IMG/VR virus record: IMGVR_UViG_2529293265_000015
Strand: one strand, 5' to 3'
Origin: a virus
Lineage: Duplodnaviria > Heunggongvirae > Uroviricota > Caudoviricetes
Length of the DNA: 14,178 nt
This document shows, one piece after another, positions 1 through 13,671 of the stretch (its first letter is position 1; each line of letters opens with the position of its first letter). The notes below the pieces were generated by a model. That model ran no database searches. It had not been told where the DNA came from and was given only the letters and a program-made list of their open reading frames with translations. The translations under genes were made by a program, and so were the position numbers.

Positions 1-280
1 TACTGCGCATACGATTACCGGGTCATACAGGAGCAGTCTGGTCTGAAAACATCAATGTCGCGTAAAGGTAACTGTTACGACAACGCTCCGATGGAAAGCT
101 TCTGGGGAACGCTGAAAAAATGAGAGCCTGAGCTACTATCGTTTTAATAACCGGGATGAAGCCATCTCAGTAATACGGGAATACATTGAGATTTTCTACA
201 ATCGTCAGCGTCGTCACTCTCGTCTGGGGAATATCTCCCCGGCAGCCTTCAGGGAAAAATATCATCAGATGGCTGCTTAA
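1..280 (+). pseudogene. IS600 orfB transposase, 3' fragment, frameshifted
   Basis: Encodes the orfB C-terminus (...NISPAAFREKYHQMAA, stop 278..280). Relative to the full copy it has one extra A in an A-run (gctgaaaaaatgag at ~111..124, A6 vs A5), giving an in-frame TGA, plus one C>T change. Confidence 0.7.
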
Positions 281-323
281 AAAAAGAACAAATGGTAGTG
301 TCCGCTATTGCCAGTACACCTCA
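1..323 (+). mobile_element. IS600 (IS3 family), partial copy: right end only, truncated by the window edge
   Basis: 1..323 is the reverse complement of 10398..10720 of the complete copy, with 2 differences. It ends in the same terminal inverted repeat (...ccgctattgccagtacacctca at 302..323). Confidence 0.85.
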
Positions 324-489
324 GTTAGTCAGCTTCTTATCGAACTTGAGCTGAAGGATCTTAAAACAAGTTTCCATAGTGCTCCTGGATTTTCTCTTTT
401 TGGACATTGACGTCTCCACTGGTTTAAACACGGCAATGGAGACTGTGGTGAAAAGAGTTAATTCCCGGAGTGACTGGCGAATTCCAATC

Positions 490-615
490 AATGATCGGAA
501 GTATGCCAAATCGTGATCGATTGTGATGCCAAACTGTGATCGGAGATGGATGCCAAATCATGATCGATTCGAATGCCAAACTGCGATCGATTCAGATGCC
601 ATTTTGCAATCAGCG
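490..615. repeat. Array of ~5 imperfect 23-24 bp direct repeats, each containing GATC
   Basis: Repeat unit approximates ATGCCAAAYYRYGATCGRWTYR. GATC sits at 493, 515, 538, 562 and 585, a spacing of 22-24 bp. Confidence 0.8.
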
Positions 616-3445: not shown

Positions 3446-3474
3446 CCCGCGTCTCCCAGCGCGGGCTTTTTTTG
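3446..3474 (+). terminator. Plus-strand intrinsic terminator-like hairpin with no plus-strand gene upstream
   Basis: GCCCGCG-tctcccag-CGCGGGC followed by TTTTTTT on the plus strand. On the minus strand the same hairpin is not followed by a U-run. Confidence 0.5.
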
Positions 3475-3476
3475 CC

Positions 3477-3780
3477 CACAAGAAAACCCCTCCGGAGAGG
3501 GGCTAAAGCCGCGTATCTGTATCATCATGCACATGGTGCCGGGTGCCTCCCGGTGAGTTCAGCCCGGTGCCACTAAACCCGCGTCATTCTCGTTTTGATA
3601 ATCAGAGATTATACCGTCACCAGTCGCCCCTCCGCTCAGGGGGATTCACCATGCGAAATTTTTTTAACAAATGCCCAGTCTGACAGGCAACTGTCAACTT
3701 ACTGAATTGTGAGCAACATAGCATTTAACGGGGAACCTGTTTTCTGCAGTAAAAAGGCCCACCGGAGCGGATGGGCCTGG
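3477..3780. repeat. Non-coding tandem module, copy 1 (~304 bp)
   Basis: Aligns with 3965..4216 at roughly 75-80% identity by eye. Shared blocks: cccctccggagaggg hairpin, gccgggtgcctcccggtga, cccctccgc.cagggggattcaccatgc, ttttaacaaa, caactgtcaac, ctgaattgtgag, and a terminal hairpin plus U-run on the minus strand (3751..3777). No ORF of 60 aa or more on the sense strand. Confidence 0.75.
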
Positions 3781-3964
3781 AAGGATAGCGGTCATGTGAT
3801 GCCGGTTTCCCGGTAACTCAGCACCGGTATCTGAGTCAACGTTTTCTCTACTGGGTCATTTCCGATACGCCCTGCCTGCTGACAGGCTTTCATCACATCT
3901 GAAAATATAGCACCCTGACTGATACTGTAGTACCTAAGGTTCCAGAAACTGTGATGTATCCGGC

Positions 3965-4216
3965 ACAGAAAAGCCCCTCCGGAGAGGGCTGGAGAGTGGC
4001 GCTATGTGCCATTGCATGATGCCGGGTGCCTCCCGGTGAATTCAGTACCAGCACCTGAATCCGCGATTATCCCATATACCTACTCGCTGATTGCCCCTCC
4101 GCACAGGGGGATTCACCATGCCAGTTTCTTTTAACAAACTCCCCGCAAAACAGACAACTGTCAACCGTCTGAATTGTGAGACATTTAAAAAAAAGGCCCG
4201 CAAAAGCGAGCCAGGG
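3965..4216. repeat. Non-coding tandem module, copy 2 (~252 bp)
   Basis: Second diverged copy of the 3477..3780 module. Minus-strand terminator GGCUCGC-uuuu-GCGGGCC followed by U8 (plus 4187..4212) lies immediately downstream of the tRNA cluster. Confidence 0.75.
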
Positions 4217-4393: not shown

Positions 4394-4400
4394 TATGTGA

Positions 4401-4476
4401 TGGTGGCCCTTGCTGGATTTGAACCAGCGACCTGGCGATTATGAGTCGCTCGCTCTCACCACTGAGCTAAAGGGCC
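4401..4476 (-). tRNA. tRNA-Ile2/Met (anticodon CAU), ileX/ileZ-like
   Basis: GGCCCTTTAGCTCAGTGGT...CTCATAAT...GGTTCAAATCC...AAGGGCCACCA closely resembles E. coli ileX. Same Ile-Arg-Arg order as the tRNA cluster of Stx phages. Confidence 0.8.
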
Positions 4477-4516
4477 GGGAGCCGCATAATAACGACGCGT
4501 AATTAATTCTTCAATA

Positions 4517-5575
4517 TCATCCGTTCTGGCTGACTAAATCCTGTACTTCCCGAACCGTCTGCTCAAAACGTTCAGTCTCCAGCTCAACGCCAATTGCACG
4601 ACGCCCGAGCGCCAGTGCCGCTTTCACTGTCGAACCCAACCCCATGAAAAAATCTGCAATCAGGTCACCCGGACGACTGCTAGCGCTGATTATCTGCTGC
4701 AGCATTTCTGCCGGTTTTTCGCACGGATGTTTCCCGGGATAGAACTGCACCGGTTTATGCGTCCACACATCGGTATACGGCACCTGCACCGTCACGCCAA
4801 AATACCGCCGCAGATGTTTATATTCACTCAGCAGCTCCGCATACTGCCGGTTCAGTGAGGTATACGTATCCACCAGCTGGTGGTGGAGCTTTTCCAGTTC
4901 ACCACGCCGATGCTTCTCTTCTGCCACCCGGGCAAACAGCGCCTGTAATTTCAGATAATCGCTTTCATTCGGCAACTGCCACTGACCGGCACTGAACCAG
5001 TGCGACACCATGTTTTTCTTTCCTGTGGCATCTGCAATCTGTTTTGCCGTTATCCCCAGGGCAGCTCGCGCATCACGAAAGTAAGAAATCAGCGGGGCCA
5101 TCACATGCTGTTTCAGTGCACTGCCCTTCGCCGCATACCCGGCATCTTTCGGACGATACGGCCCCTGATAATGTTCCGCGAACAGAATGCGCTCTGTGGC
5201 GGGGAAATACGCCCGCAGGCTTTCCTTGTTGCATCCGTTCCAGCGTCCGGACGGCTTCGCCCAGATAATATGGTTCAGCACACTGAAGCGTTCACGCATC
5301 ATGATTTCGATATCAGATGCCAGGCGATGACCACAGAACAGGTAAAGACTTCCGGCAGGTTTCAGCACCCGCCAGAACTGCGCCAGACACTGGTCCAGCC
5401 ACTTCAGGTAATCATCGTCGCCCTTCCACTGGTTATCCCAGCCCTCAGGCTTCACTTTAAAGTACGGCGGGTCCGTGACTATCAGGTCAACAGAATTTTC
5501 GGGTAACGACCGGATAAATTCCAGGCAGTCGGCGTTGATTAACTCACAACTGGATATTTTTACAGTATTAAGCAT
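4517..5575 (-). CDS. DNA methyltransferase, beta-class (N6-adenine or N4-cytosine), solitary
   Basis: 352-aa ORF with the N-terminal catalytic motif LIVTDPPYF and a C-terminal AdoMet motif DFFMGLGST; this motif order defines beta-class amino-MTases. No restriction endonuclease gene is adjacent. Target specificity is unknown. Confidence 0.8.
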   Translation of the reverse strand: MLNTVKISSCELINADCLEFIRSLPENSVDLIVTDPPYFKVKPEGWDNQWKGDDDYLKWLDQCLAQFWRVLKPAGSLYLFCGHRLASDIEIMMRERFSVLNHIIWAKPSGRWNGCNKESLRAYFPATERILFAEHYQGPYRPKDAGYAAKGSALKQHVMAPLISYFRDARAALGITAKQIADATGKKNMVSHWFSAGQWQLPNESDYLKLQALFARVAEEKHRRGELEKLHHQLVDTYTSLNRQYAELLSEYKHLRRYFGVTVQVPYTDVWTHKPVQFYPGKHPCEKPAEMLQQIISASSRPGDLIADFFMGLGSTVKAALALGRRAIGVELETERFEQTVREVQDLVSQNG

Positions 5576-5710
5576 GGATCATTAAGCCTGTCTCTGATAG
5601 GCTCATTCTGCTTTTGCGCAAAGCAGTGGGCCTGAGGTTTGCTTGTGAACCCAACGCATGAGCAGATGGCTGGTGGGTGCCCCTAACACCCACCAGCCGC
5701 CCATTTACCA

Positions 5711-5739
5711 CAAATAAAAAAGCCTTCACTGCGGAAGGC
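5711..5739 (-). terminator. Intrinsic terminator of the small HTH gene
   Basis: On the minus strand: GCCUUC-cgcagu-GAAGGC followed by UUUUUUAUUUG. It overlaps the stop codon of the 65-aa ORF. Confidence 0.6.
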
Positions 5740-5923
5740 GTCTGTAACAACCGAACTGATAGTCTGCCAGACCCGCCATAACCAGCTGGGTCAGTATTAA
5801 CTGGCAGCGTTCGCGTGAAAGGTAAGTATTCTGCGCTATCTCCCCGACTGTCGCCGGTTCGGTAACGCTTAATTCATTAAACACCACTCTGGCGGTTTCT
5901 GTCATATCCTGCTGTTTTAGCAT
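5726..5923 (-). CDS. Small hypothetical protein (65 aa), possibly a helix-turn-helix regulator
   Basis: ATG preceded by AAAGGAAAAG. The segment TVGEIAQNTYLSRERCQLILTQL looks HTH-like. It has its own terminator. Confidence 0.4.
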   Translation of the reverse strand: MLKQQDMTETARVVFNELSVTEPATVGEIAQNTYLSRERCQLILTQLVMAGLADYQFGCYRRLPQ

Positions 5924-6043
5924 GTCTTTTCCTTTTCCGGTTAACGTGACACACCAATAACTCTTGTCGAAAAAGCCAGCAAGCTGAAAGACAGGTATTC
6001 ACCGCCACCAGCGCGTTTACTGTACTGACGCGATTTCAGTCAT

Positions 6044-6065
6044 AAAAAACCCGCTCGGCGGCGGG
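6044..6065 (-). terminator. tR'-like intrinsic terminator of the short late leader transcript
   Basis: On the minus strand: CCCGC-cgccga-GCGGG followed by UUUUUU, about 65 nt downstream of the predicted pR' start. Confidence 0.65.
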
Positions 6066-6114
6066 TTGTAGAAACTCTTCTAACGTCAGGCATAAAACGC
6101 CCATCGTTATGACG

Positions 6115-6142
6115 AATTTACCACAGATTCCGGAAAAATCAA
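6115..6142 (-). promoter_or_regulatory. Late promoter pR'-like, with promoter-proximal pause element
   Basis: Immediately downstream of the Q stop on the minus strand: TTGATT, 16-nt spacer, TAAATT, then cgtcatAACGATGGG. This resembles lambda pR' (TAAATT -10 and AACGATGGG early-transcribed pause element). Confidence 0.6.
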
Positions 6143-6147
6143 CCTTG

Positions 6148-6969
6148 TTACCTAGTTACCTTTTTTAACTGCCGCTCAGCCCATGCTTCTTCAATATCAA
6201 ACCGGGTCACCAGCGCATCATAAAATTTCTTAACTGTTTTTTCCCATGACGCGCGTGTTATCTGGTTTGTCACCTCGCATATAGCATTAAATGCCTCCGT
6301 TGATGGTAGTCTTTCATAGCCACGACCACCACAACGCTGGCAGTCTCTGATAACAGGCATACCACGTTTTACCGACTCTTCACGATGAATGGCGACACCA
6401 CGCCCACGGCAATCCTTACAGGCGGTGGAAACCTCACCCTTTCCGCCACACTCCGGACAGGCAACTTTTACCACCTCCCTGACTTTTTTCCATTCTTCCC
6501 AGTAAGACGGATACACACCTTTCGTACACTTTGCCCATACCGGCGGCTTACCATCCGGATACTGGATCTTGTTTGTAAAAACCTCGCTTTCAATAAATTT
6601 TTTTCCGTGACAGCAGGGGCACTGTTTTTTGCTCGCCGCGCTACGGGCATAATCTTCAAACGCATACGAAGCCATAATACGCATCACTGCCGGTTTTATT
6701 TCTGCCGGGAGTTTTCTTAACGCCGCCACGCGATCACACCGACTGAGTGCATATTCTGTCAGCAATTCTGTTGCCCGCTCTCTGTCATTCATACTAATGC
6801 CCATTTTCCCAAGGAACGCAGAAACCCCCATCTCAGCCCGATTCTGTGTCATGCCCTGCGCGGCCATCACATCAGTGATACTCAGCGCATCTTTCGACGT
6901 TGAGGCCGATGCATCAGTCAGGCCGGGGGATTTTGGGGAGTAGTATTTCGGTAAATCTTCCAGTTTCAT
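6148..6969 (-). CDS. Late-gene antitermination protein Q (273 aa, zinc-finger type)
   Basis: Sits between rusA and the pR'/tR' pair. Several CxxC pairs (CPCCHGKK, CPECGGKG, CKDCRGRG, CQRCGGRG). Start overlaps the rusA stop (ATGA). Confidence 0.65.
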   Translation of the reverse strand: MKLEDLPKYYSPKSPGLTDASASTSKDALSITDVMAAQGMTQNRAEMGVSAFLGKMGISMNDRERATELLTEYALSRCDRVAALRKLPAEIKPAVMRIMASYAFEDYARSAASKKQCPCCHGKKFIESEVFTNKIQYPDGKPPVWAKCTKGVYPSYWEEWKKVREVVKVACPECGGKGEVSTACKDCRGRGVAIHREESVKRGMPVIRDCQRCGGRGYERLPSTEAFNAICEVTNQITRASWEKTVKKFYDALVTRFDIEEAWAERQLKKVTR

Positions 6970-7346
6970 TTTTTGACCTGCCCTTCAAGCATTATGGGAT
7001 AAATCTTCACCCCCAGACGTCCACCAGATACTGGCTGAGCACGAACGATATTGATTTCATCAAACTGCTCATCGTCCATTAGCAACCCCGCATGCGTCAG
7101 CGCATCCAGCGGCGCTTTCAGAATATTGTCCAGGTCACGGCGGCGCTTATCCGGTGGTTCTGCAATAATTTTTATTGCCAACCTTCCGGACAGGCTTAAT
7201 TTCAGCCGCTGCTGGCGAACAATAAGCGCCACTGCCCGGCGATAACGCTCCCCGGCTTTTGATACAAAATATGTGCTGCCACGACGACGCCAGTAAGTGT
7301 TCACCGTCGGCGGGTAAGGTAAAACAAATTCTATGCGCTCGGTCAT
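6966..7346 (-). CDS. rusA: Holliday-junction resolvase RusA
   Basis: 126 aa with PPTVNTYWRRRG near the N-terminus and the RRRDLDN catalytic motif; canonical nin-region position upstream of Q. Confidence 0.85.
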   Translation of the reverse strand: MTERIEFVLPYPPTVNTYWRRRGSTYFVSKAGERYRRAVALIVRQQRLKLSLSGRLAIKIIAEPPDKRRRDLDNILKAPLDALTHAGLLMDDEQFDEINIVRAQPVSGGRLGVKIYPIMLEGQVKK

Positions 7347-8405
7347 TTATGCTTTCCACTTCAGAACACCCGAATTTCTCGCGTGCATTAAAAAACGAAT
7401 CAGCAACAACAGCTGACTGCCGTGTTTCTCTTCAAAATCTTTTACTCCGGCATGTAGTTCGTTACGGCATTTACGGCATAACGGAATAACAAACAAATCA
7501 TCAGCCTTTGTTCCCATCCCTCCCAGTCCATGACCAATGATGTGATGCGGATCATCTGCCTGATTGCCACACGTCATGCATTTCTGCGTTTTTACCCAGC
7601 GCGTGTATACAGGCATCTCTTCCCGTTGTGATTTCTGGCGCTGGAGATACTGAGCCGGTGACTCCGGATCAACGGCAATGCTGACCACCGTCTTTTCCTG
7701 TGGTGGGTTCTGTTGCTGGTGGACGTGAGGCAGTAACGCAATATTTTTTGTGCGCTGCTTCAGTATGCTGGTGGCTGTCTGCTCTCCCGGTATGATGTCG
7801 CTTTCACTGTACACAGAGCGAATTTTTTCCGCACGCAACCCCAGCGAACGACGTAATACCGCTTCCGGTAGCGCGTCCGCCACCTGATTGCGGACCGCCC
7901 ACCAGGATAATTCAGCCAGAGATAATTCACGCTCCTGCGTACCGCTTATTGCGTGACCGATGACGTCAATCATCCATGCTGACAGGTTTTGATGAGCAAG
8001 TTGCTCGAGTGATTCGGATGTCTGGTCACGCAGCTGGTTGTCGCAGTGCCAGCACAACACCATTGCGCCGGTACCATAACGGTGAATGACGGTTTCGCTG
8101 TGATGATAATCGCCGTGTGGCCACTGGCAGGATTTAATATGGCGCAACAGCCAGTCAGACAATGCACCAGCACCACCAGCAGCACGAATCACCCGTGCGT
8201 TACTGAAAAACGGCAGCAATGTTTTGTCTTCCACCAGCGGCTGGCGAGCGGCAGGAACGACCCCGGACGGCAGATTACGCATGCTTTTTGGTTCCGGCTC
8301 CACCAGTATTCTGCCGTTATGGAATGCTGACATTGATTCACGGCCTGGCTTAACGATAACCAGACCGAGTTCCGGTACCAGAACAGGTCGAAGTAATACC
8401 CGCAC
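7347..8405 (-). CDS. DUF968 / YdfU-like prophage protein (352 aa)
   Basis: GTG start preceded by GGAGG. C-terminal Cys/His-rich segment CMTCGNQADDPHHIIGHGLGG...PLCRKCRNELH (HNH-like). Same position as Qin ydfU, upstream of the Q region. Confidence 0.6.
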   Translation of the reverse strand: MRVLLRPVLVPELGLVIVKPGRESMSAFHNGRILVEPEPKSMRNLPSGVVPAARQPLVEDKTLLPFFSNARVIRAAGGAGALSDWLLRHIKSCQWPHGDYHHSETVIHRYGTGAMVLCWHCDNQLRDQTSESLEQLAHQNLSAWMIDVIGHAISGTQERELSLAELSWWAVRNQVADALPEAVLRRSLGLRAEKIRSVYSESDIIPGEQTATSILKQRTKNIALLPHVHQQQNPPQEKTVVSIAVDPESPAQYLQRQKSQREEMPVYTRWVKTQKCMTCGNQADDPHHIIGHGLGGMGTKADDLFVIPLCRKCRNELHAGVKDFEEKHGSQLLLLIRFLMHARNSGVLKWKA

Positions 8406-9232: not shown

Positions 9233-9388
9233 TTACTCCTCAGGTTCGTAAGCTGTGAAGACAGCGACCTCCGTCTGGCCGGTTCGAATTCGTACCTCGC
9301 AGAGGTCTTTCCTCGTTACCAGTGCCGTCACTATGACGGTTAAACAGATGACGATCAGGGCGATTAACATCGCCTTTTGCTGCTTCAT
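9233..9388 (-). CDS. hokD: Hok-family type I toxin, HokD/RelF-like (51 aa)
   Basis: MKQQKAMLIALIVICLTVIVTALVTRKDLCEVRIRTGQTEVAVFTAYEPEE is a single-TM Hok-family peptide; by recall it matches E. coli HokD (RelF). SD AAGGAG lies 7 nt upstream of the internal ATG at 9386..9388. The track ORF 9233..9445 is an in-frame upstream extension. Confidence 0.85.
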   Translation of the reverse strand: MKQQKAMLIALIVICLTVIVTALVTRKDLCEVRIRTGQTEVAVFTAYEPEE

Positions 9389-9679
9389 AGCCTGCTTCTC
9401 CTTGCCTTTCGGCACGTAAGAGGCTAACCTAGATTTGCCGTTCATAGATTGAGCCTCAGATTAATGTTAAGCGTCTTGCCGGACGCGTAATGTTAACTGG
9501 GGCTTTTCTCTATCTGCCTTTTGGTGTTCATGCCTGAGACAGATAGCCTCAAGCACCCGCTGCAATTCTACTTAACTCTCCTTTTCCCGCAAACCGTTTT
9601 TATCCCCAGCGGCAAATCGAATACACCACCAGCGCCACCGCCATCGCAATTCCTACCGTTGTTAATGCTTCAGGCCAGG

Positions 9680-10198: not shown

Positions 10199-10397
10199 TT
10201 AACCCGCAGTGCTTTCAACTGATGAGGGGAACAAAATCTTTTCATCAAACCCTGCATTCATATCATGAACAGCAACACACCAATCCATCGACGAACGATT
10301 ATCAAGAGCCTCCATGATTTCATCCATGCGGCGTAGGTCATACAGGTAAATGCTTTTATCGCCAATGGTGTAAAAGCCAATTTTTTTCGGTGATGGA
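10199..10397 (-). pseudogene. 3' fragment of an unknown gene, 5' end removed by the IS600 insertion
   Basis: The reading frame stays open upstream into the IS600 terminus (the track ORF's start codon at 10429 is inside IS600). Ends ...FDEKILFPSSVESTAG. Confidence 0.45.
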
Positions 10398-10440
10398 TGA
10401 GGTGTACTGGCAATAGCGGACACTACCATTTGTTCTTTTT

Positions 10441-11259
10441 TTAAGCAGCCATCTGATGATATTTTTCCCTGAAGGCTGCCGGGGAGATATTCCCCAGACG
10501 AGAGTGACGACGCTGACGATTGTAGAAAATCTCAATGTATTCCCGTATTACTGAGATGGCTTCATCCCGGTTATTAAAACGATAGTGGCTCAGGCTCTCA
10601 TTTTTCAGCGTTCCCCAGAAGCTTTCCATCGGAGCGTTGTCGTAACAGTTACCTTTACGCGACATTGATGTTTTCAGACCAGACTGCTCCTGTATGACCC
10701 GGTAATCGTATGCGCAGTACTGTGAACCTCGATCAGAGTGGTGGATTAGCCCGGCAGGTGGGCGCTGGCTCCTGAGCGCCATAAACAGGGCTTTACCTGT
10801 CAGCTCTTTTGTCATGCGCTCTCCCATGGCGTAGCCGACAATTTCGCACGTATAAACATCTTTGATGCCAGCGAGGTACAACCATCCCTCCTGTGTGGCA
10901 ACATACGTCAGGTCCGCCACCCAGACCTGATTTGGTGCTGTAGGAGCGAACGTCTGGTTCAGCAGATTTGGCGCAACTGGCAGATTGTGGTTCGAGTTCG
11001 TAGTCGCTCTGAACTTGCGTTTCTGCTTACAGTGTAGCCTTAGCTCCTTACGAAGACGTGCCAGTCGGTCACGACCAACGATGATGCCATTCTCTGCCAG
11101 CTCCGTCTGGAGCCGCCGGGTTCCATATGTTTCGCGAGTGCGGATATGTGCCACCTTAATCTCCAGTTTTAGCCGCTCATCACTTTGTTTTCTGTCTGAG
11201 GGTTCATGCTGTACCCAGTTGTAATAACCGCTCCTGGATACACCAAATACCTGACACAT
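10441..11259 (-). CDS. IS600 OrfB (transposase catalytic domain), expressed as OrfAB by -1 frameshift
   Basis: 272-aa frame with the integrase/DDE-type core (...HSDRGSQYCAYDY...NAPMESFWGTLKNE...). The orfB frame runs upstream to overlap the orfA 3' end. Confidence 0.85.
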   Translation of the reverse strand: MCQVFGVSRSGYYNWVQHEPSDRKQSDERLKLEIKVAHIRTRETYGTRRLQTELAENGIIVGRDRLARLRKELRLHCKQKRKFRATTNSNHNLPVAPNLLNQTFAPTAPNQVWVADLTYVATQEGWLYLAGIKDVYTCEIVGYAMGERMTKELTGKALFMALRSQRPPAGLIHHSDRGSQYCAYDYRVIQEQSGLKTSMSRKGNCYDNAPMESFWGTLKNESLSHYRFNNRDEAISVIREYIEIFYNRQRRHSRLGNISPAAFREKYHQMAA

Positions 11260-11294
11260 CGCTTCAATGGGAAATTGTTGTCGCCATTGTTCGA

Positions 11295-11597
11295 TTAACG
11301 CGTATTTTTCAGCGACTCCTGTGCAAAATACGCTGTTGCTTTTTTTAATATATCTCGCTCAAGGCGAGCTTCATTTAACGCCTTACGCAGTTGCAGAATT
11401 TCAGATTCCAGTTCAGCCACCGTGCGGGAACCAGGAGTACCGAGCCCTTTTCTGGCGGCGGTAACCCATTGTCCTAAAGTGCCTTCAGGAAGAGATAATC
11501 GGGAAGCGCCTTCACTGATCGAAAGTTGATTTTCAGGAACCGTTCTGACAGCTTCGGCTTTGAACTCTTTAGAGTAACGTTGGGTTTTTCTGCTCAT
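11295..11597 (-). CDS. IS600 OrfA (100 aa)
   Basis: MSRKTQRYSKEFKAEAVRTV...LERDILKKATAYFAQESLKNTR, recognised from memory as IS600 ORF1. Confidence 0.85.
   Translation of the reverse strand: MSRKTQRYSKEFKAEAVRTVPENQLSISEGASRLSLPEGTLGQWVTAARKGLGTPGSRTVAELESEILQLRKALNEARLERDILKKATAYFAQESLKNTR
11339..11346 (-). other. Programmed -1 ribosomal frameshift site of IS600
   Basis: AAAAAAAG on the minus strand, at the end of orfA where the orfB frame overlaps. Confidence 0.6.
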
Positions 11598-11661
11598 TAT
11601 TAGCTCCTTCTGATGCCATTCTATTTCAGGAAGGAGTGTCCGTTAAACTCAGGCTACCTCA

Positions 11662-12051: not shown

Positions 12052-12178
12052 GCCAAATTAACAATCGGAACTTCGTGAAGAGAAAGCATAATCCAAAATC
12101 TGAATAATTAAGTTCAGCACTGTGGTGATGCTGCCAACTTACTGATTTAGTGTATGATGGTGTTTTTGAGGTGCTCCA

Positions 12179-12454
12179 GTGGCTTCTGTTTCTATCAGCT
12201 GTCCCTCCTGTTCAGCTACTGACGGGGTGGTGCGTAACAGCAAAAGCACTGCCGGACATCAGCGCTATCTCTGCTCTCACTGCCGTAAAACATGGCAACT
12301 GCAGTTCACTTACACCGCTTCTCAACCCGGTACGCACCAGAAAATCATTGATATGGCCATGAATGGCGTTGGATGCCGGGCAACTGCACGCATTATGGGC
12401 GTTGGCCTCAACACGATTTTACGTCACTTAAAAAACTCAGGCCGCAGTCGGTAA
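12179..12454 (+). CDS. insA: IS1 InsA (91 aa)
   Basis: [20 protein letters not shown]...[12 protein letters not shown] with a GTG start. Confidence 0.85.
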
Positions 12455-12876
12455 CCTCGCGCATACAGCCGGGCAGTGACGTCATCGTCTGCGCGGAAAT
12501 GGACGAACAGTGGGGCTATGTCGGGGCTAAATCGCGCCAGCGCTGGCTGTTTTACGCGTATGACAGTCTCCGGAAGACGGTTGTTGCGCACGTATTCGGT
12601 GAACGCACTATGGCGACGCTGGGGCGTCTTATGAGCCTGCTGTCACCCTTTGACGTGGTGATATGGATGACGGATGGCTGGCCGCTGTATGAATCCCGCC
12701 TGAAGGGAAAGCTGCACGTAATCAGCAAGCGATATACGCAGCGAATTGAGCGGCATAACCTGAATCTGAGGCAGCACCTGGCACGGCTGGGACGGAAGTC
12801 GCTGTCGTTCTCAAAATCGGTGGAGCTGCATGACAAAGTCATCGGGCATTATCTGAACATAAAACACTATCAATAA
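12373..12876 (+). CDS. insB: IS1 InsB frame (expressed as InsAB' by -1 frameshift)
   Basis: 167-aa frame ...[21 protein letters not shown]...[18 protein letters not shown]; the A6C slippery motif ttaaaaaactc is present. Confidence 0.85.
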
Positions 12877-12899
12877 GTTGGAGTCATTACCTACATCGG

Positions 12900-13671
12900 G
12901 GTGATGCTGCCAACTTACTGATTTAGTGTATGATGGTGTTTTTGAGGTGCTCCAGTGGCTTCTGTTTCTATCAGCTGTCCCTCCTGTTCAGCTACGGACG
13001 GGGTGGGTGCGTAACAGACAAAAGCACTGCCGGACATCAGCGCTATCTCTGCTCTCACTGACCGTAAAACATGGCAACTGCGGTTCACTTACACCGCTTC
13101 TCAACCCGGTACGCACCAGAAAATCATTGATATGGCCATGAATGGCGTTGGATGCCGGGCAACTGCACGCATTATGGGCGTTGGCCTCAACACGTATTTT
13201 ACGTCACTTAAAAACTACAGGCCGCAGTCGGTAACCTCGCGCATACAGCCGGGCAGTGACGTCATCGTCTGCGCGGAAATGGACGAACAGTGGGGCTATG
13301 TCGGGGCTAAATCGCGCCAGCGCTGGCTGTTTTACGCGTATGACAGTCTCCGGAAGACGGTTGTTGCGCACGTATTCGGTGAACGCACTATGGCGACGCT
13401 GGGGCGTCTTATGAGCCTGCTGTCACCCTTTGACGTGGTGATATGGATGACGGATGGCTGGCCGCTGTATGAATCCCGCCTGAAGGGAAAGCTGCACGTA
13501 ATCAGCAAGCGATATACGCAGCGAATTGAGCGGCATAACCTGAATCTGAGGCAGCACCTGGCACGGCTGGGACGGAAGTCGCTGTCGTTCTCAAAATCGG
13601 TGGAGCTGCATGACAAAGTCATCGGGCATTATCTGAACATAAAACACTATCAATAAGTTGGAGTCATTACC
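12900..13671 (+). mobile_element. IS1, degenerate 772-bp copy, in tandem with the first (8-bp spacer tacatcgg)
   Basis: Same terminal sequences as copy 1, but several indels and substitutions in the insA region and at the frameshift window. Confidence 0.85.
13132..13656 (+). pseudogene. Truncated InsA'-InsB fusion frame in degenerate IS1 copy 2
   Basis: Indels (cacgtattttacg...ttaaaaactacagg versus cacgattttacg...ttaaaaaactcagg) put the insA 3' part and insB in one DNA frame, while the insA 5' part carries frameshifts. Confidence 0.6.

Follow-up and report, generated by a model that had tools for sequence, protein, structure and literature searches.

A conserved structured leader RNA precedes an M.EcoGII-family adenine methylase gene in the late operon of a lambdoid prophage

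The window analyzed here, a stretch of 14,178 nucleotides (nt) from a Caudoviricetes virus (IMG/VR record IMGVR_UViG_2529293265_000015) with a Shigella host, is the late region of a lambdoid prophage of the Shiga toxin (Stx) phage type, without stx genes. We find that a solitary DNA methyltransferase (methylase) gene in this region is preceded by a conserved folded RNA of five helices that matches no database family. We consider it probable that the two belong to a late-operon module in which a non-specific adenine methylase is gated by Q antitermination and by the structured leader. The enzyme itself is known and stands in its usual place; what is new here is the conserved leader RNA, of most interest together with the terminator that precedes it. 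Identities, families, layout, and leader conservation and covariation come from this analysis, and the non-specificity, silence and harmfulness of the enzyme from the literature; we infer that this element depends on Q, that its leader is regulatory and that a Ser313Leu substitution may impair the methylase. All relevant genes of the window lie on the minus strand. In order, the module comprises the following features (aa, amino acids).

6969..6148, minus strand: gene for the late antiterminator Q, 273 aa (PF03589 Antiterm, 1.6e-53; PHROG anti-termination protein Q-like, 6e-112)
6142..6115, minus strand: pR'-like late promoter, read from the sequence (−35 TTGATT at 6142..6137, 16-nt spacer, −10 TAAATT at 6120..6115)
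6067..6042, minus strand: tR'-like intrinsic terminator, AACCCGC/GCGGGTT followed by TTTTTAT (terminator scan)
5923..5726, minus strand: gene for a 65-aa winged-helix protein (PHROG 331, function unknown)
5739..5712, minus strand: second intrinsic terminator, t2 (stem GCCTTC/GAAGGC at 5739..5722, then TTTTTTATTT)
5717..5576, minus strand: conserved structured methylase leader RNA, 142 nt (covariance-model match of 154.5 bits, pair counts, conservation)
5703..5699 with 5631..5627, minus strand: leader helix P0
5698..5687 with 5679..5668, minus strand: leader helix P1
5664..5661 with 5643..5640, minus strand: leader helix P2
5626..5620 with 5614..5608, minus strand: leader helix P3
5604..5599 with 5589..5584, minus strand: leader helix P4, ending 8 nt before the AUG
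5575..4517, minus strand: gene for a beta-class N6-adenine DNA methyltransferase of the M.EcoGI/GII family, 352 aa
4476..4227, minus strand: three tRNA genes (CAT, Arg-TCG, Arg-TCT)

The spacer that separates the small gene from the methylase gene can be aligned across genera and contains long invariant runs. Between the window and other genera, identity is 74-82% in the 136 nt preceding the ATG. For comparison, the methylase coding DNA is 66-74% identical between genera, and its third codon positions 48-54%. Because relatives in different genera differ by insertions and deletions of 1-2 nt, the leader is non-coding. The same changes break every frame of a candidate small open reading frame (ORF) inside the leader (ATGGGCGGC...), which we therefore rejected. 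An internal promoter was also considered and discarded, as the consensus scan finds none in the leader.

Unconstrained RNAalifold on a first alignment gave an unconvincing structure. Four helices were then derived from covarying columns, and a covariance model was built. In the resulting alignment, 94.7% of cells are paired, as against at most 45% when the partners are slid by one to three columns. Changes on both sides occur at 20 of the 27 pairs, compared with 4.8 ± 1.3 in shuffles (0/500), although these counts were made on a model-fitted alignment, which favors structure, and the sequences are related, so that the shuffle control overstates significance. One P2 pair is found as U-A, C-G and A-U without exception in 77 sequences. 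Divergent members from Tatumella, Pseudocitrobacter, Rosenbergiella and a Vibrio plasmid keep the helices with a different sequence. These include replacements of whole helices, with P1 formed by CCGGA-UGU/ACA-U-UCCGG in Tatumella and P3 by GCUC/GAGC on the Vibrio plasmid. Rfam 15 returned nothing for the leader at gathering scores and, at E ≤ 10, only hairpin-level chance matches (such as P26 and mir-2008). RefSeq has no annotation under it, and two papers on the Q-stx region mention neither the methylase nor this RNA.

The leader travels with the methylase across Enterobacterales and on a Vibrio plasmid. A 17-nt pattern from the spacer occurs in more than 120 viral contigs, and 111 of its 130 occurrences have a DPPY methylase ~80 nt downstream. 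We ran the leader model on 80 loci that had been found via the methylase protein in a search of genome contigs. Where the methylase is at least 70% identical, the model lies directly 5' of its start in 42 of 44 loci; the search gave no match at the other two, L152 and L165. It also matches before more distant enzymes from Tatumella (60% identity) and Pseudocitrobacter (58%), and before the Vibrio plasmid copy. The leader alone is present in 1812 of 5426 complete Escherichia coli genomes. It occurs in phages SfV, cdtI and mEp460, in Stx2a, Stx2c and Stx2d phages, and in phages of Klebsiella, Citrobacter, Morganella and Providencia. DNA resembling positions 4400..6200 of the window was found in 3392 of the 5426 E. 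coli genomes, at least 80% of the stretch being present in 2007 of them.

The gene behind this leader encodes an enzyme of a well-characterized family. Residues 29-340 match Pfam PF01555 (N6_N4_Mtase; E = 7.9e-42, 144.1 bits against a cut-off of 26.7), and the relatives found in the Protein Data Bank (PDB) include RsrI, CcrM, MboIIA and DpnA. DPPY lies at aa 35-38 (5473..5462) and FFMGLGST at aa 309-316 (4651..4628). The resulting order, motif IV followed by the recognition domain and then motif I, places the methylase in the beta class. It is 93% identical to M.EcoGII over its whole length (324 of 349 residues, with the reference machine-read from the PDF of supplement 5 of PMC11551740 and so containing a few reading errors). 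Identity reaches 95% with the enzyme of phage 1720a-02, whose locus has the same small gene and leader as the window; Murray et al. named that enzyme as very similar to M.EcoGII (PMC5778455).

M.EcoGI and M.EcoGII methylate adenine in any context and are unexpressed in the lysogen; constitutive expression yields slow-growing, unstable clones, and the authors proposed that the enzymes defeat host restriction during lytic growth (PMC5778455). Homologues ~93% similar from Shiga toxin–producing E. coli are likewise listed as non-specific and silent (PMC6602927). The enzyme family is thus already known, and for the window methylase we predict the same activity from sequence alone. Most plausibly, it would provide blanket anti-restriction methylation under Q-dependent late expression. 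M.EcoGII and M.EcoGI come from a prophage of E. coli O104:H4 C227-11 and share with the window enzyme the order DPPY-recognition domain-FxGxG, the prophage location and the lack of a partner nuclease. The window copy differs in having Leu313 for Ser and Leu230 for Pro, and in its Shigella host and defective prophage. The published work on the pair does not describe an upstream terminator, a leader RNA or the small gene (PMC5778455).

Much of this agrees with the original prediction, made from the letters of the window alone, which had named a solitary beta-class methylase in the late operon. Family match, motif order and the position after pR' and tR' all bear this out, and its suggestion that the enzyme protects against host restriction fits the published 93%-identical M.EcoGII and is the most plausible use. 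It had also noted that no restriction endonuclease is adjacent. PADLOC defense models match none of ten neighboring ORFs, the methylase itself excepted, and Pfam finds only ordinary lambdoid genes among the neighbors. Related loci (Klebsiella, Salmonella, Buttiauxella and Citrobacter prophages and an O157:H7 Stx2a phage) contain no cognate restriction endonuclease either. Its FxGxGS motif is right as far as FxGxG, but Leu stands where relatives have Ser. Note that a non-specific enzyme would produce global N6-methyladenine (m6A) without a motif, so taking the lack of a newly methylated motif as a refutation, as that prediction did, is ill-fitting.

The layout around the module argues for late expression. 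TTGATT starts eight bases past the stop codon of Q, and the spacer of the pR'-like promoter ends in TGG (a TGn at 6123..6121). At the predicted transcription start lies AACGAT (6108..6103), which we take to be the −10-like pause element of lambda pR'. The tR'-like terminator follows ~66 nt past the predicted start and would give an RNA of ~66 nt. The lambda 6S RNA, StxS and IsrK of Gifsy-1 likewise come from a constitutive promoter after Q with an early intrinsic terminator. The predicted window RNA belongs to a different Q type and does not have the StxS sequence, and Rfam isrK gives a weak sub-threshold match at 6044..6115 (16 bits) that does not make it a member by the Rfam score. The module is shared up to exactly 6067, the tR' stem, by many phages whose Q and pR' sequences differ. 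We therefore regard tR' as the mosaic joint at which Q cassettes and downstream cargo recombine.

Prophages of Klebsiella, Salmonella, Buttiauxella and Citrobacter have the small gene and methylase behind Q genes of three unrelated families (PF03589, PF06323 and PF06530) and ahead of the lysis genes. The O157:H7 Stx2a phage has Q, followed in turn by the small gene, the methylase, ileZ-argN-argO and stx2AB. Q-dependent expression of the methylase thus appears well supported by position. The original prediction had placed the gene between pR'/tR' and the tRNA cluster and expected it to be Q-dependent and switched on at induction. The positions of Q, tR' and the tRNA genes match that placement, and Q dependence is the most plausible interpretation of the layout, in keeping with the silence of M.EcoGII in the lysogen (PMC5778455).

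Our proposed sequence of events is as follows. In the lysogen, the constitutive pR' transcript would end at tR', and any polymerase leaking through would meet the second terminator after the small gene. Upon induction, Q-modified RNA polymerase would pass both terminators and transcribe the 65-aa gene, the 142-nt leader and the methylase gene. The enzyme would then methylate adenines of the replicating phage DNA in any context, and progeny may thereby resist many restriction systems that are sensitive to adenine methylation. The methylase ATG has no Shine-Dalgarno sequence upstream; the conserved bases before the AUG are UUA-N-UGAUC-Y, with TGATCC (5581..5576) abutting the ATG in the window. 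Because the enzyme is harmful to the cell, layered gating by two terminators, a start codon without Shine-Dalgarno sequence and a structured 5' leader would be expected.

Several observations count against this account, in addition to the bias in the pair counts described above. Helix P4 is weaker than the others, with only 76% paired. The late promoter is identified by position only and is putative, being a sub-threshold consensus match (8/12, where the scan requires 9/12). The hairpin before the leader is followed by a poor U-run in other genera and may terminate badly there. A helix sequestering the ribosome-binding site is unsupported in divergent members. Moreover, the prophage is defective, so induction may never happen, and Ser313Leu alters a near-invariant residue, so the window copy of the methylase may do nothing.

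The last two points lead to the strongest alternative, namely that the window copy is a non-functional relic that carries out no methylation under any condition, owing to Ser313Leu and prophage decay. We regard this as a real possibility, though the less likely outcome. Motif I could be read in 113 of 121 sequences (8 were unreadable), and residue 313 is Ser in 112 of these 113 cluster representatives, the sole Leu being the window sequence itself. The glycines of the S-adenosylmethionine (AdoMet) motif I are kept, the pattern in relatives being F-x-G-S-G-S/T-T. The window methylase deviates at two other positions as well, with Leu230 for Pro and a change at position 197 (Ser). The exact protein recurs in ~1000 contigs as 'MULTISPECIES: site-specific DNA-methyltransferase [Shigella]' and is thus a fixed lineage variant. 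The endolysin gene of the element is truncated near 606, and the element carries IS600-like and IS1 copies. Against a relic, the methylase reading frame is intact over its 352 codons, as are Q, tR' and the leader. Furthermore, other methyltransferase classes, such as Dam, vary at the corresponding residue, the x of FxGxG. We conclude that the window copy, probably one in decay, may be weakened or dead. A related S. boydii protein (P0151, 98% identical) shares Leu230 and is not among the Leu313 variants (Ser313 or motif unreadable).

If the module is gated as we propose, the leader may set or condition translation of the methylase. More tentatively, and with our judgment almost evenly balanced, it might represent a new class of cis-regulatory RNA, a protein- or ligand-binding translational gate for the non-specific adenine methyltransferase genes of temperate phages. 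We examined several candidate mechanisms. A helix between the P2 loop (GGUCA..AAGC) and GCUUA..UGAUC before the AUG, suggested by RNAalifold and a single-sequence fold, was rejected; it contains a mismatch in the commonest E. coli type and cannot form in Tatumella and other divergent members. An alternative long-range pairing, GCUCAU/AUGAGC, is mostly invariant, with one compensatory case (locus L177), and is broken in locus L160, where P2 is restored; we consider it weak. The GCUCAU resembles a boxA, but inspection found no boxB hairpin after it, and a nut-like site was therefore dismissed.

Translational control has a precedent in Com, the translational activator of the harmful mom gene of phage Mu. 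Like the window module, com-mom pairs a harmful late anti-restriction modification gene with layered transcriptional and translational control. The two differ in that com is absent from the window, Mom is no methyltransferase, and control in the window appears to rest on Q antitermination and a structured leader. Com-type zinc-ribbon genes (PF10122) do occur upstream of distant relatives of the methylase, at loci L191 (48.3 bits) and L181 (34.1 bits), with matches below the cut-off at L182 and L187. At these four loci (Shewanella, Vibrio and Acinetobacter), the relatives are 40-56% identical, with the Com-like ORF ~100-150 nt ahead of the matching methylase region. The Vibrio plasmid (L187) has a leader-like RNA (39 bits) first, then com and then the methylase. 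The non-specific m6A enzymes Hia5, Hin1523 and Nme1821 of Mu-like prophages are silent in lysogens, lie behind com and have been proposed as a replacement of Mom (PMC3299994). They are Dam-like, with FxGxG before DPPY (~residue 194), and thus represent a different class of independent origin in a different type of phage. Given com genes before the distant relatives and before Hia5-type methylases alike, translational control is a recurring solution for such enzymes.

Two more specific ideas about the leader seem to us unlikely, to about the same degree. The first is that the 65-aa protein does the work of Mu Com, binding the leader RNA and activating methylase translation. The Com-type genes directly upstream in distant relatives and the missing Shine-Dalgarno sequence would suit it, and winged-helix domains can bind RNA hairpins, with SelB and Z-alpha among the weak fold matches of the small protein. 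However, those fold matches lack significance (E about 0.5), the leader does not differ in sequence between units with and without the small gene, and on the Vibrio plasmid the leader precedes com, which is thus not its replacement. The second is that the leader is a riboswitch sensing a ligand such as AdoMet or S-adenosylhomocysteine, which would make synthesis of the methylase follow the supply of methyl donor. This would fit a junction of several helices whose unpaired runs CAUG, UCACA and AACC are invariant and which stands directly before the gene of an AdoMet-dependent enzyme. Nevertheless, no riboswitch family in Rfam matches at E ≤ 10, and no expression platform can be defined; the alternative pairing GCUCAU/AUGAGC shows little covariation and is broken in L160.

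The 65-aa ORF upstream of the leader is a real gene, judging from its conservation, its ribosome-binding site (AAGGA, 7 nt before the ATG) and the excess of third-position changes. Its protein has 334 homologues with 81-100% identity in Escherichia, Shigella, Salmonella, Klebsiella, Citrobacter and Buttiauxella. Differences from 88 distinct homologous ORFs number 1683 at third codon positions, against 448 and 393 at first and second positions. An AlphaFold2 model shows three helices and a wing (pLDDT 72). Pfam matches to TrmB (PF01978; 18.0 bits against 25.6), MarR_2 and DprA_WH are all under the cut-offs, the fold search returned generic winged-helix matches, NCBIfam has no match, and a PDB profile search gave nothing relevant. 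NCBI annotation names the homologues 'TrmB family transcriptional regulator'. We reject that membership, since the gathering score of PF01978 is missed, and regard the protein as a generic winged helix.

The small gene's stop codon lies within the t2 stem. Every relative has a hairpin at this position, its sequence freely varying. Of 165 leader occurrences, 136 have the small gene no more than 120 nt upstream. In ~24 leader-methylase units (~15%) it is absent, with unrelated genes upstream and the leader unchanged, and Stx2c phages share the leader and methylase with the window but not the small gene. The 65-aa protein is therefore a frequent but dispensable companion of the methylase unit. 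A Klebsiella prophage (L003, 5196..5880) has lost the methylase while the small gene and the first part of the leader persist, a natural deletion variant.

The original prediction had described an HTH-like (helix-turn-helix-like) 65-aa ORF with its own terminator, and the winged-helix model and t2 uphold this. It had further likened the arrangement to modules of a controller (C) protein and a methyltransferase. In this scheme the 65-aa protein would act on the methylase gene as a transcription factor, repressing it or setting its timing in the manner of the C proteins of restriction-modification systems. Type II systems with C proteins do have a small helix-turn-helix gene upstream of the methyltransferase gene, and the proximity of the small gene to the leader, its fold and its NCBI name all point that way. 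We nonetheless think such a role improbable, slightly more so than either idea about the leader. The protein has no HTH_3/Xre match at E ≤ 10 and falls short of TrmB, and the locus has no restriction gene. Between the two genes lie a terminator and the leader rather than an operator and promoter, and the consensus scan finds no promoter-like site there. The units without the small gene keep an unchanged leader, and cloned M.EcoGII is active without the 65-aa gene (PMC5778455). PapI/FaeA, which the prediction had suggested searching for, is absent from the Pfam matches of the protein at E ≤ 10. Its functional guess was thus broadly right and its regulatory analogy wrong.

A sequence-specific epigenetic role of the methylase at host or phage sites such as the GATC array at 478..601, a link that had been raised as speculation, is very improbable: the tandem array of about 4.3 copies of a 23-bp repeat does carry GATC in each unit, and a conserved GATC abuts the methylase ATG, but the enzyme family lacks sequence specificity, GATC is the target of host Dam, and the array abuts the endolysin cut-off near 606, lies beyond it and matches a 'transposase, partial' segment at the end of prophage Stx2a_1447. 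The array belongs to inserted DNA and looks like the end of a mobile element.

The rest of the window is that of a decayed Stx-type prophage. The remaining features near the module are as follows.

8405..7347, minus strand: DUF968/HNH gene
7346..6966, minus strand: RusA gene
4514..4486, minus strand: sigma-70-like promoter, TTGAAG-17-TATTAT (consensus scan), between the methylase stop and the tRNA genes
4195..4212, minus strand: terminator-like hairpin after the tRNA cluster (terminator scan)
Next in window order, after a ~1-kb stretch with STnc100 matches: NanS-p-type esterase gene, holin gene and DUF1327 gene

The promoter at 4514..4486 agrees with work on Stx phages, in which a transcription start between tR' and stx2 drives the tRNAs (PMC7547250). 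ARAGORN calls the tRNA at 4401..4476 (minus strand) Met (CAT), and related phage records name it ileZ, a tRNA-Ile with a modified CAT anticodon. Two Rfam matches to the small RNA STnc100 (3474..3683 and 3961..4150, minus strand; 161 and 124 bits) each end in a terminator-like hairpin, and occupy the place held by stx genes in related phages. A hok/sok-type toxin-antisense locus lies at 9233..9558 (minus strand), where Rfam sok scores 112 bits at 9383..9558 and overlaps a Hok-like 70-aa ORF (9233..9445). An insertion sequence (IS) of the IS3 family, IS600-like with orfA and orfB, spans 10340..11600, with a partial inverted copy of its end at 186..410; two tandem IS1-like copies lie at 12150..13656. 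Homology of the endolysin gene stops at ~606, after ~18 codons. Together with this truncation, the IS elements indicate heavy IS decay and mark the prophage as defective.

These findings bear on an enzyme family that is very widespread among E. coli prophages and already in laboratory use as a reagent (EcoGII). To our knowledge, there is no published account of how phages silence and then switch on such a harmful enzyme. The arrangement reported here provides a specific, testable scheme of control: a pair of terminators, a methylase start lacking a ribosome-binding site, and a conserved leader that accompanies the gene in different genera. In many Shiga-toxin phages the module is flanked by Q and stx2, which puts the leader and t2 on the toxin transcript, where they could affect toxin expression. 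If our reading is correct, many Stx2 phages of enterohemorrhagic E. coli would carry a new class of regulatory RNA on their late transcript, directly upstream of the tRNAs and stx2.

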